Notes: generated from the sequence alone by a model not told the origin. A stretch of 64,000 bases of DNA from an uncultured bacterium (GCA_902776615.1 CACYQU010000002.1:5419-69418), one strand, 5' to 3'; numbered from the stretch's first letter, positions 5,598 to 11,800 are shown. Numbers and translations: made by a program.

Positions 5598-6723
5598 AGC
5601 CATATTAGCTTCAACCCTTCAGATAGGACCGTTCTGGCAGCAGTGGATCGGGCACAAGGCATTGTGCCCGATCTGGTCGCGCGAGCAGACGGCAGAAACG
5701 GCGAAGTATCCGGCGGTCGACACCACCGATGTCCTGTGGCCGCTCTTTACTTCGCACAGAGACTGGTGGCGGTTCCTCTTTGTAATGCACTGCCAGACGC
5801 AGAAGGATGGCGGATACCAGTTCATGCTGTTCCCGGTCTGGTTCAACGGCAACGATCCCGAAAGCGGGGACTATTGGGGGCTGTTCCCGCTGTGGGGCCG
5901 CCATCCTCACTTTCTTATGATGAACGACTGGCGGTTTTGTCTGTGGCCGATTTGGATGCAGTACAAAACGCCGCGTCCTTCCGAGAATCGCTTGATGACG
6001 TCAAACGTCGTGCTGTTCCCGTTCTTCCATTGGCGCGACGATGGCTCGTGGGGCGTTTGGCCGCTGTGCGGAACGGGCCATCAGCGGGAAAGCGACCATC
6101 ATTACGCGCTGTGGCCTTTCTTTACATGGGCGCGATACCGCAAAGACCGCGACACGGCAGGCGAGGGTTCGTCATGGATGGCATGGCCGCTTTGGGCGGA
6201 CGTTTCACGCGAGCGCGAAAGCCAATGGATGTTCATTCCGCCTTTTTTCGGCCATTCGAAGACCCCCTCCGGCAGCCGGCTGCGCTGTCCGTGGCCTTTC
6301 TTCGAAAAAGAGTCCACCACGGCCAAGGAGCGACTTTCGGTGTTTCCTTTCTACGAAAAAGTATCACTAAAGGACTATCGCAAAGGAAAGTCGGAATCCG
6401 GCGTAACCCGCTTTGGATGGAGGCTTGTCGAAATCTACCGCAACGCTTCCGGTGAAGTGGAAGAGACTCGCGTGTTCCCGTTCTGGGCCAAAGGCCGTGG
6501 CTTTTTCAGGTTGTGGCCATTCTGGGCGACTGAGACGCTTGATGCAAAGAACGGCGTGACTTACAGCAGATGCCTTAATCTGATCCCTATCCGCTGGATA
6601 GACGCCATCGATCGCAATTGGTCGCCATACTGGACATTTTACGAGTCGGTTTCAAGACCGACACATACTGACCATTCTCTTCTTTGGGGGTTGATAAAAT
6701 GGCGGACGGAAGAAAGCTTGTGA
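5587..6723 (+). CDS. Hypothetical Trp/Phe-Pro repeat protein (about 16 copies of h-[WF]-P-h-[WF])
   Basis: 378 aa with LWPLF, LFPVWF, LFPLWG, LWPIWM, LFPFFHW, VWPLCG, LWPFFTW, AWPLWA, PWPFFE, VFPFYE, VFPFWA, LWPFWA at roughly 15-30 aa spacing. It overlaps the upstream gene by 11 nt. I recognise no family. Confidence 0.6.
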   Translation: MFAEAILASTLQIGPFWQQWIGHKALCPIWSREQTAETAKYPAVDTTDVLWPLFTSHRDWWRFLFVMHCQTQKDGGYQFMLFPVWFNGNDPESGDYWGLFPLWGRHPHFLMMNDWRFCLWPIWMQYKTPRPSENRLMTSNVVLFPFFHWRDDGSWGVWPLCGTGHQRESDHHYALWPFFTWARYRKDRDTAGEGSSWMAWPLWADVSRERESQWMFIPPFFGHSKTPSGSRLRCPWPFFEKESTTAKERLSVFPFYEKVSLKDYRKGKSESGVTRFGWRLVEIYRNASGEVEETRVFPFWAKGRGFFRLWPFWATETLDAKNGVTYSRCLNLIPIRWIDAIDRNWSPYWTFYESVSRPTHTDHSLLWGLIKWRTEESL

Positions 6724-7622
6724 AAATAGCCAGACTGTGGTCGCGGACTCTGCGCGTTGACCAGTGGACGAAAAACGGCATTGTAATGATGGCGTGGTTC
6801 TTTTCCGTTGCGGATTCGAGCCAGCGCGACATCGTGCGCGGATGGGAATCGTTTCTCATGGCGTTTGCCATGGCTGTGGCATTTTGCCTTGTTTCGTCCG
6901 CCTTCTATCTTCTGAACGACGTTTCGGATTACGATGCCGATCGCATGCATCCTGTGAAGCGCCATCGCCCTGTTGCGTCCGGGCTTGTCTCGCGAATGAC
7001 GGCCGTGCGGGTCGGCCTTACGCTTTTTGCGATAGGTTTCGCGTATCCGGCTCTTGTCGTAATGATACTTCCTTCCCGAACGCTTGCTTTCGGCACGGTG
7101 CTTGCCTACACGGTCATGCAATGCCTTTACACAGGCTTCATGAAGCGCATTCCGTATCTTGACGTGGTCACGCTTTCTGCCGGCTTCGTGCTTCGTGCAG
7201 TCGCCGGTGCGGCGATAATAACCGCGTACATTTCAATCTGGCTTCTCGTCTGCACTCTCACGCTTTCGATGTTTCTCGCATTCTGCAAGCGCAAGAACGA
7301 AATGGAGACCGCTGCCGAATCGCGCGAGGTTCTGCGCCGCTACCATCCAAACACGCTCAAGCTTTGCATTGTCATTTCGGGCGGGCTTTCGTTTGCAGAA
7401 TATCTCGTCTACACTCTTACTTCGAAGATGGGGGATCGCTTCCCCGGTCTTTGGGTCACTTCGCTTTTCGTGCTTGCCGGAATACTGCGGTATATGTATC
7501 TTGCCTGGGGAGCGGGCGATACAGGCCGCCCGGAGAAGGTTTTGCTTTCCGACAAGTTTCTATGGTGCATTTTGGCTGGATATGCCGCCTGCTCGGTCGC
7601 AGCCGTGGCGGTTTCACTGTGA
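6699..7622 (+). CDS. UbiA-family prenyltransferase, decaprenyl-phosphate phosphoribosyltransferase (DPPR synthase)-like
   Basis: RVDQWTKNGIV N-terminal motif and NDVSDYDADRMHPVKRHRPVASG (NDxxDxxxD followed by HPxKRxRP), as in the Rv3806c-type subfamily. ATG 6699 is preferred over TTG 6684. Confidence 0.7.
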   Translation: MADGRKLVKIARLWSRTLRVDQWTKNGIVMMAWFFSVADSSQRDIVRGWESFLMAFAMAVAFCLVSSAFYLLNDVSDYDADRMHPVKRHRPVASGLVSRMTAVRVGLTLFAIGFAYPALVVMILPSRTLAFGTVLAYTVMQCLYTGFMKRIPYLDVVTLSAGFVLRAVAGAAIITAYISIWLLVCTLTLSMFLAFCKRKNEMETAAESREVLRRYHPNTLKLCIVISGGLSFAEYLVYTLTSKMGDRFPGLWVTSLFVLAGILRYMYLAWGAGDTGRPEKVLLSDKFLWCILAGYAACSVAAVAVSL

Positions 7623-8890
7623 AATTCATTGAGGAACTTGCCGCAAAGCGGCGTTTCGGAATGCGTCCTGGATTGGACGCTATTCGTGATGTATGCGCCA
7701 GCCTTGGCAATCCTCAGAACGCAGTGAGGGCGATTCATGTCGCTGGCACGAACGGGAAGGGCGCTGTGTGCGCCATTTTGGACTCTTGCCTTCGCGCGGC
7801 TGGCTTCAAAACAGGTCGCTATACTTCGCCGCACCTTGTCCGTCTGAACGAGCGCTTCTTTCTTAATGGATCGCCGGCGGATGACGAAACTCTCGAAAAA
7901 CACGCCATTTTGGTCCAAAATGCAATTTCCAACCGGGGGCAGTCCCCATCCAACCGGGGACTGTCCCCAGTTGACCTTACCTTTTTCGAGGCTCTCACCG
8001 CTGTCGCTTTCAGTCTTTATGCCGAGCGCAAGCCTGATTTCACTATACTTGAAACCGGTCTTGGCGGACGTTTGGATGCGACAAATATCTGCAAACCCGT
8101 CCTCACTGTAATCACTCGCATAGGGCTTGACCATTGCGATTGGCTTGGGGACAGTCCCTCGAAAATTGCCTTAGAGAAGGCGGGTATCATAAAAACGGGA
8201 GTCCCCGTTGTCGTCGGTGCAAACGATGCCGAGGTGTTGGATGTAATACGGCGCCGTGCGGACGAAGTTGGCGCCCCTTTTGTATATGCACCCGAAAAGG
8301 CCTCGCTAAATGATATTCCTTGCGAATTTGCCCTGCAGGGGCCATTTAACAGAGAGAATGCCACAACTGCGATTGCTGCACTTAAGACACTTGGAACGAG
8401 GAACTATGAGGACGGATTCAAGTCAGTCGTCTGGCCGGGAAGATTCCAGGTTATCGGCAATTTCATAGTCGATGGCGCGCACAATCCCCCGGCGGCACAT
8501 GCTTTGGCCGAGGCTCTTGTGCATATGCCTCGCCAAGAGTATCTGATAGCAGGCTTTTGCGGCGACAAGGATGTGGACGAGGTGCTTCGCACCCTGGCCC
8601 CATTTGTTCGCATGGGCATTGCCGTAAAGACCGGCAACCCCCGCTCGCTTTCGGCGGAGGCTGTTGCCTGTAAAATGAAAAGTGCAGGAATATGCGCTGT
8701 GTCAGCTGATTCTCTCAAAAATGCCATTTCAAAAGTGGGGACTGTCCCCACTTTGATTTGCGGTTCTCTCTTTCTTGCAGGCGAGGCGCTTGTTGAACTT
8801 GGCGCATATCCGTGGGGACAGTCCCCGAAAAATGGCGGGGGACAGTCCCCTCGGTTCGATCCGTCGGAACTGCTCAAGCCTGAAGGGTAG
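7619..8890 (+). CDS. folC: Folylpolyglutamate synthase / dihydrofolate synthase
   Basis: GTG start overlaps the ubiA-like stop (GTGA). HVAGTNGKGAV P-loop, TSPHLVRLNERF, ETGLGGRLDATN and DGAHNP motifs. It carries in-frame copies of a 13-nt palindrome and a C-terminal tail. Confidence 0.8.
   Translation: MKFIEELAAKRRFGMRPGLDAIRDVCASLGNPQNAVRAIHVAGTNGKGAVCAILDSCLRAAGFKTGRYTSPHLVRLNERFFLNGSPADDETLEKHAILVQNAISNRGQSPSNRGLSPVDLTFFEALTAVAFSLYAERKPDFTILETGLGGRLDATNICKPVLTVITRIGLDHCDWLGDSPSKIALEKAGIIKTGVPVVVGANDAEVLDVIRRRADEVGAPFVYAPEKASLNDIPCEFALQGPFNRENATTAIAALKTLGTRNYEDGFKSVVWPGRFQVIGNFIVDGAHNPPAAHALAEALVHMPRQEYLIAGFCGDKDVDEVLRTLAPFVRMGIAVKTGNPRSLSAEAVACKMKSAGICAVSADSLKNAISKVGTVPTLICGSLFLAGEALVELGAYPWGQSPKNGGGQSPRFDPSELLKPEG
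7929..7969. repeat. Tandem pair of about 21-nt units, each holding the palindrome GGGGACWGTCCCC (first copy GGGGGCAGTCCCC at 7935-7947, second GGGGACTGTCCCC at 7956-7968)
   Basis: CCAACCGGGGGCAGTCCCCAT / CCAACCGGGGACTGTCCCCAG read directly. Translated NRGQSPSNRGLSP inside folC. Confidence 0.9.
8147..8159. repeat. Copy of the GGGGACAGTCCC(t) palindrome (12/13 match). A weaker GGGAGTCCCC lies at 8197-8206.
   Basis: Read directly. Translated LGDSPS, a different reading frame relative to the motif than at 7935. Confidence 0.8.
8737..8749. repeat. Copy of the GGGGACTGTCCCC palindrome, flanked to give GTGGGGACTGTCCCCAC
   Basis: Read directly. Translated VGTVPT. Confidence 0.9.
8814..8850. repeat. 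Two copies of GGGGACAGTCCCC (8814-8826 and 8838-8850), 11 nt apart, in the folC 3' tail
   Basis: Read directly. Translated WGQSPKNGGGQSPR. Confidence 0.9.
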
Positions 8891-11800
8891 GTGCAGGTGT
8901 CACTGCATGATATCGCCATAGAATATCCACAGGATTTGCCTGTTGTTGCCCATCGTGCCGAGATTGCCGATGCGATGCGTCGAAATCAGGTGGTCATCGT
9001 ATGTGGTGATACTGGTAGCGGAAAGACGACCCAGCTGCCGAAGATGGCTCTTGAACTGGGGCGTGCGGCCGATGGACGCCGCATAGCCGTAACTCAACCG
9101 CGCCGCATGGCGACTGTTGCGATGGCGGAACGTGTCGCCGAGGAGTTGAAAACCCCTGTCGGCGGAACAGTCGGCTATCAGCACCGTTTTCAGAAGAAGG
9201 TGTCGGACGACACACGCATAAAGTTCATGACGGATGGCGTGCTTTTGGCCGAAACGCGCCACGATCCGTTTCTCAGGGCATATGACACGATAATCATCGA
9301 CGAGGCTCACGAGCGTTCGCTCAACATAGATTTCCTGCTTGGAGTCGTGAAACGGCTCATCGCGCGCCGACGCGATTTAAAGGTGGTCGTCTCTTCGGCC
9401 ACACTGGATGTCGCCGGCTTTTCGCGGTTTTTCGGCAATGCGCCGGTGATTGAGGTTCCCGGCCGCCTTTACCCGGTCGATGTCGTCTACAATCCTTCGC
9501 CAGAGGGCGAGGAGAGCGACGTGGCCGGCGATGTCCTGCGCGCCGTGGCGTCGCTGCCTGTCGATGGCGATGTGCTGGTGTTCCTTTCGGGCGAAAGGGA
9601 TATACGCGAAAGCGCCGAGAGGCTGAAGGGACGTTTCGGAGAAGCAAACGACATCATACCCCTTTATTCCTCTCTGCCGTCTGGCGAGCAGCGCCGCGCG
9701 TTCACCATGTCCGCCAGGCGCCGCATAATCCTTTCCACAAATGTCGCGGAGACATCCGTCACTCTGCCGGGCATTCGCTATGTTGTGGACTCCGGCCTCG
9801 CCCGCATATCACGCTACATACATCGCACGCAGATTCAGCGGCTTCAGATCGAGCGCGTGTCCCAAGCCTCCGCGCGTCAGCGGACAGGTCGGTGCGGACG
9901 CCTTGGCCCGGGCGTTTGCATACGGCTTTATTCCGAGGAGGATTTTGCCTCGCGCGAGCCATACACTCCGCCGGAGATTCTGCGCTCGTCGCTGGCAGGT
10001 GTCATACTGACGATGCTCGACCTGGGTCTTGGAGATATTGCGGAATTTCCTTTTATGGATCCGCCACGCCCCGCAGGGGTGCGCGAGGGCATGAACGAAC
10101 TTGTCGAGCTGGGCGCGGTCGCTGTGGGAACGGACGGCGTTCCCTCGCTGACTGCCATCGGCCGCAAGCTCGCGCGCATCCCGGTCGAGCCGCGCCTTTC
10201 CCGGATAATGCTCGCCGCGTCCGATTTGGCCGTGCTGCCTTCTGCCCTGCCCATTGTGGCCGGGCTCGCATGTGACGATCCGCGGCGGCGTCCCGCCGAA
10301 GAGCGCGACAAGGCGAAGGCGGCCCACGCCAAATGGCGTGTCGCCGGCTCGGACTTTCTGTCCACCTTGAGACTTTGGCGCTGGTTCTCCGAAGAGACGC
10401 GTGACATGTCTCAAAACCAGACGCGCAAGCTTTGCAAAACCAACTATCTTTCCTACCCGAAGATGCGCGAGTGGCGCGACCTCGTGCAGCAACTAGGCGA
10501 CATGGCGTCAAGGCTCGGGTTGGACACGAAAAACGATAATGGCGGACCGGACGCAGTCCATCGTGCGCTGCTGGCAGGCTTTCTTTCGCGAATCGGAAAG
10601 TTCGATCCGGAAGAGCGCAACTACAGGGGTGCGCACGGAGTGCGCTTCGCTCTGCACCCGGGCTCCGTTCTTGCCAAGAAACCGCCGGAATGGGTGGTCG
10701 CCGGCGAATTGGTGGACACCTCGCGTCTCTTTGCGTGCGACGCGGCGGCCATAGATGTCGGTTGGATAGAGGCTGCGGCCGGCCCTCTTTGCCGCCGCAG
10801 TTATCGCGAACCTTCATGGGAGGCGTCTACTGGCTTCGTGCGTGCCATTGAGCAGGTGACGGTCTACGGACTTGTCGTCGTGCCGTCGCGCAGATGCGAC
10901 TATTCGAGAATCGACCCCAAGGGAGCGCGCGAGATTTTCATACGCTTCGGCCTTGTGGAAGGAGAGTTTCCCCATCCGCCCCGCGAAGTGCGCGAGAACG
11001 CGTCCGTGATAGGCGAGTTGCGCCGCCGCGCCGAGAAGTTGCGCCGTCCAGACCTCTTCGACCAAGTCGGCCTGGAACGTTTCTTCGACCGAACCGTCCC
11101 GTCTGCGGTATGTTCGGCCGATGCGCTCAGAAAGTGGCTCGCGCGGGCGAGCGCGGCCGAGCGGGCGGCGTTTCGTCTCAAGCGCGCAGACTGGATTCCG
11201 TCCGATGGCGGCGGAAGCGCGGACTTCCCGGACTCGATTCATGTCGGCGGTGCGAAGATGCGCCTTTCGTACCGCCATTCGCCCGACGATTCCGAGTCCG
11301 ACGGCATAACATGCACTGTGAAGAAACGCGATGCTGCGGCGCTCTTGCTTTGGCGATCGGACTGGCTCGTGCCCGGCGCGCTCCCGTCAAAACTCGCATG
11401 GATGCTGTCGGTGCTTCCGTCTTCGCTCCGACGCGTGCTTACTCCGCTTGACGAGAAGCTGAGTATTCTGTCATCCATGCTCAGGCCTGGCTCCGAAACG
11501 CTGGAAGAGGCCGTGCGCCGCGCGGTATACTCTGAATGGGGGTTCAGGATTCCTGCCGATGCATGGCGCGGACTGGAGCCGCCGCCGCATCTGAAAGTGC
11601 GATACACCGTCATCGACGATGATGACGGCAAGATTCTGGCGTCGTCGCGCGATGTCCGCGAGGTTCTTGCGAAGGTATGTGGCGGTTCCGGCGGGACGGA
11701 GGCGGAAGCCTCGCCAAAGGTGCATGTCGCGTGGGATTTCCCGTCGCTGGACGAAATGTCGGTAGAGGGTAGCGCAGGCTGGAAGGTCGAAAGCCATGCC

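Follow-up and report, generated by a model that had tools for sequence, protein, structure and literature searches.

A short palindromic repeat linked to Y1 transposase genes and concentrated in the loops of FolC in Kiritimatiellae

Introduction

In the REP/REPIN-RAYT systems of Escherichia coli and Pseudomonas, short GC-rich stem-loop palindromes occur singly, in tandem arrays or as inverted doublets that give long hairpins; they flank the gene of a Y1 (HUH) transposase that has no tnpB partner, and they fall into subfamilies within genomes. A palindrome that shares much with these repeats, the 13-nt GGGGACWGTCCCC, is found in a 64,000-nt stretch of DNA from an uncultured member of the Kiritimatiellae (GCA_902776615.1 CACYQU010000002.1:5419-69418; the whole stretch is referred to below as the window), where all copies are located inside one gene, folC, which codes for folylpolyglutamate/dihydrofolate synthase. 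The palindrome differs from the described REPs in its perfect 13-nt core with a single central base, in lacking a GTAG tag and in its very low extragenic density in the sampled DNA, most of the copies seen being in a single open reading frame (ORF).

Intragenic REPs have been documented in housekeeping genes, mainly those of replication and repair; the GTAG-type ones are most numerous in Opitutus terrae, a bacterium of the Planctomycetes-Verrucomicrobia-Chlamydiae (PVC) superphylum, and in some species no more than one gene is decorated with them (PMC3733652, Di Nocera et al. 2013). The folC gene is not among the hosts in the supplementary lists of that paper. Like the intragenic REPs and the Rickettsia palindromic elements, the folC copies are in-frame palindromic insertions in a conserved housekeeping protein, several of which may occur per gene. 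They differ from both in being arrays of a 13-nt core with a period of 18-36 nt (mostly 21-24 nt) that occupy one gene across a clade, while the Rickettsia element RPE-1 is about 100-150 bp long and usually single.

Miniature derivatives of IS200/IS605 (palindrome-associated transposable elements) are short and non-autonomous, and are mobilized in trans by a Y1 transposase that recognizes their end hairpins. The copies described here are far shorter, and no target-site rule was found for them. Quasi-palindromes, in turn, are hot spots of template switching, which in short inverted repeats homogenizes the arms and inverts the spacer (PMC7202029, PMC8604942). Clustered arm-matching substitutions and an inverted spacer base of this kind are seen at two of the folC sites (copy 3 and the N-terminal doublet, see below); a hot spot is, however, a mutation mechanism and not a repeat family, and it leaves the 13-mer at transposase genes unaccounted for.

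Results

Copies in the window

The first-pass annotation of the window reported six to seven copies of the palindrome, found inside folC only and in numbers far above chance expectation. We re-scanned the window for GGGGACWGTCCCC and for its general form, GGGGWCWGWCCCC. Four exact copies (starting at 7956, 8737, 8814 and 8838) and two copies with one mismatch (7935, GGGGGCAGTCCCC; 8147, GGGGACAGTCCCT) were recovered, all at the coordinates previously given and all within folC (7619..8890, plus strand, GTG start), an intact ORF whose identity follows from its translation, from Pfam Mur_ligase_M and Mur_ligase_C domains and from orthologues named FolC in Kiritimatiellae. There are no further copies with up to one mismatch in the rest of the 64 kb, the wider pattern included, and two-mismatch sites beyond folC are limited to 5876 and 23998. 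Dinucleotide shuffles yielded 0.00 exact copies, in agreement with the claim that far less than one copy is expected by chance, and 0.91 sites with up to two mismatches, compared with eight seen. The candidate seventh site, a degenerate GGGAGTCCCC at 8197-8206, does exist; it is part of AACGGGAGTCCCCGTT (8194..8209), which encodes the family-wide G-V-P-V, and is probably native sequence rather than a member of the repeat family.

Copies 1 (7935..7947, GGGGGCAGTCCCC, 12/13, phase 2, GQSP) and 2 (7956..7968, GGGGACTGTCCCC, exact, phase 2, GLSP) are built from two 21-nt tandem units (7928-7948 and 7949-7969) that are 90% identical, as had been noticed before. Together with their flanks they form a REPIN-like doublet (7930..7973), an 18-nt inverted repeat with 89% complementarity, and this N-terminal doublet is a net insertion relative to the folylpolyglutamate synthase of Lactobacillus casei, as previously proposed. 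Copy 3 (8147..8159, GGGGACAGTCCCT, 12/13, phase 1, GDSP) is located at a native LGD(T) site. Copy 4 (8737-8749, GGGGACTGTCCCC, phase 3, GTVP) lies within a 23-nt perfect palindrome, AAAGTGGGGAC-T-GTCCCCACTTT (8732..8754), which occupies the turn preceding the conserved TLICGSLF strand. Copies 5 (8814..8826) and 6 (8838..8850) are both GGGGACAGTCCCC, exact, in phase 2 and translated as GQSP in the C-terminal tail; together they make a second long hairpin at about 8810-8854.

Predicted folding energies are -6.4 kcal/mol for a lone 13-mer and -15.6 kcal/mol for copy 4 within its 23-nt palindrome. For the two doublets, RNA folds of -34.8 kcal/mol (7926-7976, z -6.2) and -30.4 kcal/mol (8805-8860, z -4.0) are predicted. 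Scans with Rfam and simple promoter and terminator scans returned nothing across the repeat region.

Copies in related folC genes

The FolC proteins nearest to that of the window come from Kiritimatiellae metagenome assemblies and are 385-506 aa long. Many Kiritimatiellae FolC proteins bear GQSP, GLSP, GTVP or GDSP, often in tandem repeats of seven to eight residues, and the DNA of eight loci reveals the same 13-mer behind these peptides, or else a subfamily, GGGGACAGACCCC, with its complement GGGGTCTGTCCCC. The motif is therefore found in the folC of relatives, for which a search had been recommended. Counted at up to one mismatch, the folC genes of individual loci carry 13 copies (L001), nine (L211), six (the window), five (L208), four (L125 and L209), three (L003) and one (L214); six of the 14 related folC loci have none, and a search of motif-less folC genes for an alternative repeat family found none. 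Over the 14 loci, the 18.4 kb of folC contain 45 copies and the 187 kb of flanking DNA contain one, a ~450-fold difference. The sole flank copy is an exact one (960-972) in the thymidylate kinase gene tmk of L211, beside folC, where it is in frame and encodes GTVP.

The genes around folC vary: ubiA upstream (with hrpA downstream in the window), secG, rsfS-tmk, or an SSF transporter gene and a metallophosphatase gene. With such different neighbors, the motif is tied to the folC gene and not to a chromosomal position, and a parS-type, centromere-like or positional cluster was rejected on the same grounds. Among 60 distant FolC loci of other phyla, which total 701 kb, no exact copy was present.

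Association with Y1 transposase genes

Species-representative genomes were scanned for pairs of copies no more than 35 nt apart, and non-folC arrays were found in at least three Kiritimatiellia assemblies. In locus L047, an array of about eight copies is located directly upstream of a gene with the Pfam Y1_Tnp (IS200-like) domain. Altogether, the exact 13-mer adjoins a Y1_Tnp gene in five of five related loci, although both flanks of the transposase gene are assembled only in L204, the other four (L047, L205, L206 and L207) showing one side. In L204, two copies precede the transposase gene (9850 and 9961) and one follows it (10844), with zero elsewhere in 20 kb. There are nine copies upstream of the gene in L206, three upstream and one inside it (966-978) in L207, and one downstream in L205, where a further exact copy is found in frame, as GTVP, in the gene of an ABC-transporter ATPase (5874-5886). 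Thus, the statement that the palindrome occurs inside folC only holds for the window; in the clade, copies are also present at transposase genes, in intergenic doublets, in tmk and in the ABC ATPase gene. No wide set of unrelated host genes per genome emerged: besides folC, only tmk, the ABC ATPase gene and the transposase gene were seen to host the motif.

Three roles had been suggested for the palindrome: an array of protein-binding sites, a recombination or uptake-type signal, and a miniature invasive palindrome. The last one fits best, given the identical 13-mer next to a Y1 (IS200/RAYT-type) transposase gene in relatives. A DNA uptake sequence or a HIP1-like word was rejected for want of the scatter expected of such signals, the window having zero copies outside folC.

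The full-length transposases are ~360-415 aa long and, in a departure from RAYT, have a ~130-aa insert between the half with the HUH motif and the tyrosine half (‘YI..NPVKAG’). Among NCBIfam models, REP_Tyr_transpos matches them best, with 41-45 bits, short of its cut-off of 80 (IS200 reaches about 21 bits), and profile matches in the PDB are to IS200/IS605 TnpA alone. Nearly all of the full-length proteins contain an in-frame GDSP, GDCP or GTVP directly after ‘MRPPECR.PLW’. The copies in transposase genes are mostly in phase 1 (GDSP/GDCP) and occupy one fixed spot within the ~130-aa insert (P0144, P0147, P0151, P0143 and P0157); many database copies of the transposase end at that spot or sit on very short contigs.

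Counts of flanking positions in 31 folC and 19 transposase-side copies revealed a weak preference for T at -1 and for A at +1, and neither a GTAG/CGTC tag nor a conserved flank beyond the 13-mer. The flanks of copies are barely more similar within a gene than between genomes, and no mobile or duplicated unit could be delimited beyond the 13-mer.

The scan of species-representative genomes also retrieved at least 120 double-motif stretches, which belong to many phyla; among the matches listed, none is in folC. In those phyla, G4-N5-C4 palindromes that are identical or similar to the motif behave as ordinary hairpin repeats between genes: either GGGGACAGTCCCC itself or a sister palindrome, GGGGTCAGACCCC, is arranged in intergenic tandem arrays or in hairpin pairs, often bordered by A and T runs, in the unrelated groups Acidobacteriota, Kuenenia, Omnitrophota, Conexibacter, Lachnospiraceae and Rectinema (loci L042, L049, L073, L037, L046; L004, L017, L038, L043, L112). 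No Y1 gene was detected near these arrays, and we therefore do not take identity across phyla as evidence of common descent. A search with a synthetic G-x-x-P repeat peptide for other decorated protein families gave one weak, uninformative match, and in the literature the 13-mer and 11-mer strings turned up only in unrelated eukaryotic and viral primers.

Reading frames and location in the FolC protein

The palindrome encodes G-x-x-P in all phases and with either central base, GGGG....CCCC being read as Gly-x-x-Pro. The peptides GQSP, GLSP, GDSP and GTVP listed in the first-pass annotation are all present in the window, where all three phases are used, one more than the minimum of two stated there. 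Among the 45 folC copies, 25 are in phase 2, 19 in phase 3 and one in phase 1, and the central base is A in 24 and T in 21. The frame that yields GDSP/GDCP is nearly missing from folC, which points to filtering at the protein level.

In an alignment of 34 FolC sequences, motif peptides occupy five indel-variable segments located between conserved blocks. An AlphaFold model of the window protein (mean predicted local distance difference test score, pLDDT, 84.9) places the N-terminal doublet in a disordered loop of residues 105-120, with pLDDT below 50 at 107-109 and 112-115, copy 3 in a loop (residues 177-180), copy 4 in a helix-strand turn (residues 374-377) and the C-terminal copies in a tail (residues 400-423) where pLDDT is mostly below 50. 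The indel-variable segments and the low-pLDDT loop, turn and tail show in-frame insertion into surface loops with the fold intact, and for the protein the copies amount to decoration of its loops. The motif peptides, for which an alignment with orthologues had been recommended to see whether each is an insertion, lie in insertion-prone loop segments; the site at 8147 is a converted native LGD(T) and no insertion.

Other repeats were observed in FolC loops. A distant folC from a soil metagenome (L157) has five tandem 8-nt units at 1974-2013 (ATTCCAAC; the first is ATCCCAAC) near residue 115, in the same N-terminal loop as the doublet of the window. The FolC orthologue P0037 has an insertion of ~40 residues (columns about 312-353 of the FolC alignment) with a 7-residue periodicity, roughly D/N-x-K-x-T-L-x, which is located at the second hot spot and is not of the G-x-x-P type.

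Conservation at the DNA level

Four-fold degenerate third positions are just 35-44% identical between the folC of the window and that of L209, L001, L003 or L211, and silent sites are thus close to saturation. Against this background, the copy in front of TLICGSLF, ‘GGG [A/T]CT GTC CCC’, is present in L208, L209, L001 and L003 (and absent from L211); its codons are identical to copy 4 in L208 and L209 and differ slightly from it in L001 and L003. Likewise, L001, L003 and L211 keep the N-terminal doublet, ‘TGG GGA CAG.CC CC. ... GG[A/G] CTG TCC CCA’, of which L208 has a degenerate version and L209 one fused copy. The Gly (GGA) and Pro (CCA) codons of the motif recur in diverged orthologues, while adjacent native Gly and Pro codons vary.

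Judged from sequence comparison, the 13-mer is conserved as a DNA word and not as a peptide, since one 13-mer gives GQSP, GLSP, GTVP or GDSP depending on phase and since codons are kept in diverged orthologues. This upholds the initial proposal; orthologues with the same peptides encoded by different DNA, which would have spoken against it, are not what is seen, as the codons do not vary freely. A reading of the copies as a peptide repeat was rejected because one DNA word yields several peptides.

Creation and turnover of copies

At the site of copy 3, L208 (88% identical) has the native GGT GAC ACT CTC where the window has GGG GAC AGT CCC. Copy 3 was thus created by three to four substitutions, all towards the consensus and including the synonymous GGT to GGG. 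A contig of the same species, L212 (98.6% identical), differs from the window at 63 of 4387 positions, six of which fall within the 34-nt doublet, where 0.5 would be expected. These differences raise the complementarity of the arms from 13/18 to 16/18 and flip one center. In L211, two spacers are reverse complements of each other, AAAAATCG in the N-terminal array and CGATTTTT in the middle one, and L001 contains tandem units of 24 and 36 nt. Decayed copies are also found, such as GGGTACAGACCCC and GGGGACAGTCCTC in L208 and L212.

Template switching would produce exactly these patterns of arms, centers and spacers. A second cluster, in which 46 nt (8290-8335) hold nine of the 27 differences that separate the folC of the window from that of L212, suggests a recombination tract, and import by recombination is therefore also possible for the doublet differences, which we had first read as template switching.

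Neighboring genes and other features of the window

The GTG start codon of folC shares GTGA (7619-7622) with the stop codon of the preceding ubiA-family gene, and an ORF for an hrpA-like helicase begins at a GTG directly after the folC stop (8888-8893). Given these overlapping or abutting starts and stops, the three genes are tightly packed. An exact look-up of the window FolC product gave no match, because gene callers chose another start codon.

At 7906-7922, 13 nt 5′ of copy 1, folC contains a further perfect palindrome, which is 17 nt long and has a single central base (CATTTTGG-T-CCAAAATG). About 0.02 such palindromes are expected per gene; its sequence is unrelated to the 13-mer, and L208 has a version with one mismatch. 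The half-site GGGGAC occurs 22 times in the window on both strands, 11 times in folC and 11 times outside it, and dinucleotide shuffles predict ~27 for the whole window. The number outside folC may reflect avoidance or mere codon usage.

Discussion

The repeat is a REP/REPIN-like family linked to a Y1 transposase, from which two classical REP properties, the tag and extragenic abundance, are missing. We consider it probable, if far from certain, that transposase-associated palindromic repeats colonized the loops of folC in frame and that they now multiply and are corrected locally. The 13-mers would be copies of a REP/REPIN-type family tied to an IS200/RAYT-type Y1 (HUH) tyrosine transposase in Kiritimatiellae. 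As single-stranded DNA, each copy would form a G4/C4 hairpin, and two neighbors would form a long one. Such hairpins would be substrates of the Y1 transposase and would also trigger replication slippage and template switching. Copies may have entered folC in the ancestor of the clade and later multiplied and turned over within the gene, by tandem duplication of 18-36-nt units (mostly 21-24 nt), by inverted copying between sites, by correction of quasi-palindromes to perfect ones and by flips of the central base. They would survive in coding DNA by virtue of the Gly-x-x-Pro read from any frame or center state, and persistence would be restricted to copies that are in frame and lie in a surface loop or tail of FolC. 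The data show the repeat family as such, its association with the transposase gene in relatives, its restriction to the loops encoded by folC and its conservation as DNA; we infer both the mobilization by the Y1 transposase and the template-switch route.

The stem-loops and doublet hairpins of REPs and REPINs are predicted in folC, and a flanking Y1 gene is found in related genomes only. Several observations weigh against this explanation. There is no Y1 transposase gene within the 64-kb window; the transposase of the relatives falls short of the curated RAYT cut-off (45 of the required 80 bits), with only IS200/IS605 structures as profile matches; and the GTAG/CGTC tag is missing from the folC and transposase-side copies alike. 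Ordinary REPs are extragenic and abundant, whereas here no extragenic copy is present in 62.7 kb of the window and one in the 187 kb of folC flanks. Moreover, selfish spread combined with loop tolerance does not explain the ~450-fold preference for folC, nor does it explain identical codons at 35-44% four-fold identity. The folC bias and the codon-level conservation thus leave room for hairpins selected by the host or for a protein that recognizes them, or else for concerted, hairpin-templated correction.

According to the first of these possibilities, which we regard as a serious though unlikely alternative, the array is a cis-element selected by the host and kept to tune the expression of FolC or a coupled process. 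The factor acting on it might be a Y1 (HUH) protein or another DNA-binding factor, or an RNA-binding factor or the ribosome on mRNA hairpins, and the idea is compatible with an origin linked to the transposase. The folC enrichment is maintained through at least four different gene neighborhoods, and the N-terminal doublet and the GTVP/GSVP copy keep near-identical codons in orthologues that have diverged so far at silent positions. A native site was converted to the motif with a synonymous change among the substitutions, and great stability is predicted for the mRNA hairpins. What is conserved is the sequence itself, with no compensatory variants in the stem, which fits sequence-specific recognition. 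On the other hand, the lack of copies in six of the 14 loci and their variable number (1-13) in the others is not what one would expect of an essential regulatory site; copies have decayed in certain lineages (L208 and L212), and template switching that makes the copies evolve in concert could look like conservation.

A more specific version, to which we give rather less credence, is that a domesticated Y1 (HUH) protein or another factor recognizes the GGGGACWGTCCCC hairpins, and that the folC array and the transposase-gene array have been kept since the clade ancestor as a gene-specific element of control or maintenance. If true, a REP and its transposase would here form a pair that has one host gene as its dedicated target. 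The symmetry of the palindrome and its strict conservation would also be compatible with an operator array of a dimeric regulator.

Hairpin-driven local mutation acting alone, with native quasi-palindromes perfected and duplicated without any transposase and the identity of the transposase-linked repeat being secondary, appears to us improbable. Native half-motif sites do exist in folC, e.g., LGD encoded by TTGGGGAC and YPWG.SP encoded by TGGGGN...CCN; copy 3 arose in place, tandem units are present, and several perfect single-center palindromes are found in the gene, one of which (7906-7922) has nothing in common with the motif. However, chance is insufficient to explain the exact 13-mer that folC shares with the Y1-gene arrays of five loci in several assemblies, and the GGGGACAGACCCC/GGGGTCTGTCCCC variants recur in several copies and lineages, as they would in a replicating family.

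That G-x-x-P is selected as a flexible FolC linker, with the DNA identity a by-product, is very hard to credit: every copy does encode G-x-x-P in a loop, and the avoidance of phase 1 indicates that the peptide matters for tolerance, but the various tetrapeptides all derive from one DNA word, the GGA and CCA codons recur in motif copies while those of neighboring native Gly and Pro residues vary, and the same word is abundant in non-coding arrays.

Colonization of folC by a transposase-associated repeat remains our preferred explanation. REPs and REPINs are usually extragenic and spread genome-wide, whereas here a very short perfect palindrome resides largely inside one gene of an essential pathway and inside its own transposase gene. 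The Gly-x-x-Pro obtained in every frame is a simple rule by which coding sequence can accommodate a DNA palindrome. The bias towards one gene, together with conservation at the nucleotide level, makes this a tractable case for distinguishing selfish spread, hairpin-templated uniformity and service to the host. For annotation, it means that length variation and low-complexity G-x-x-P loops in the FolC proteins of Kiritimatiellae are repeat insertions and not domain features.

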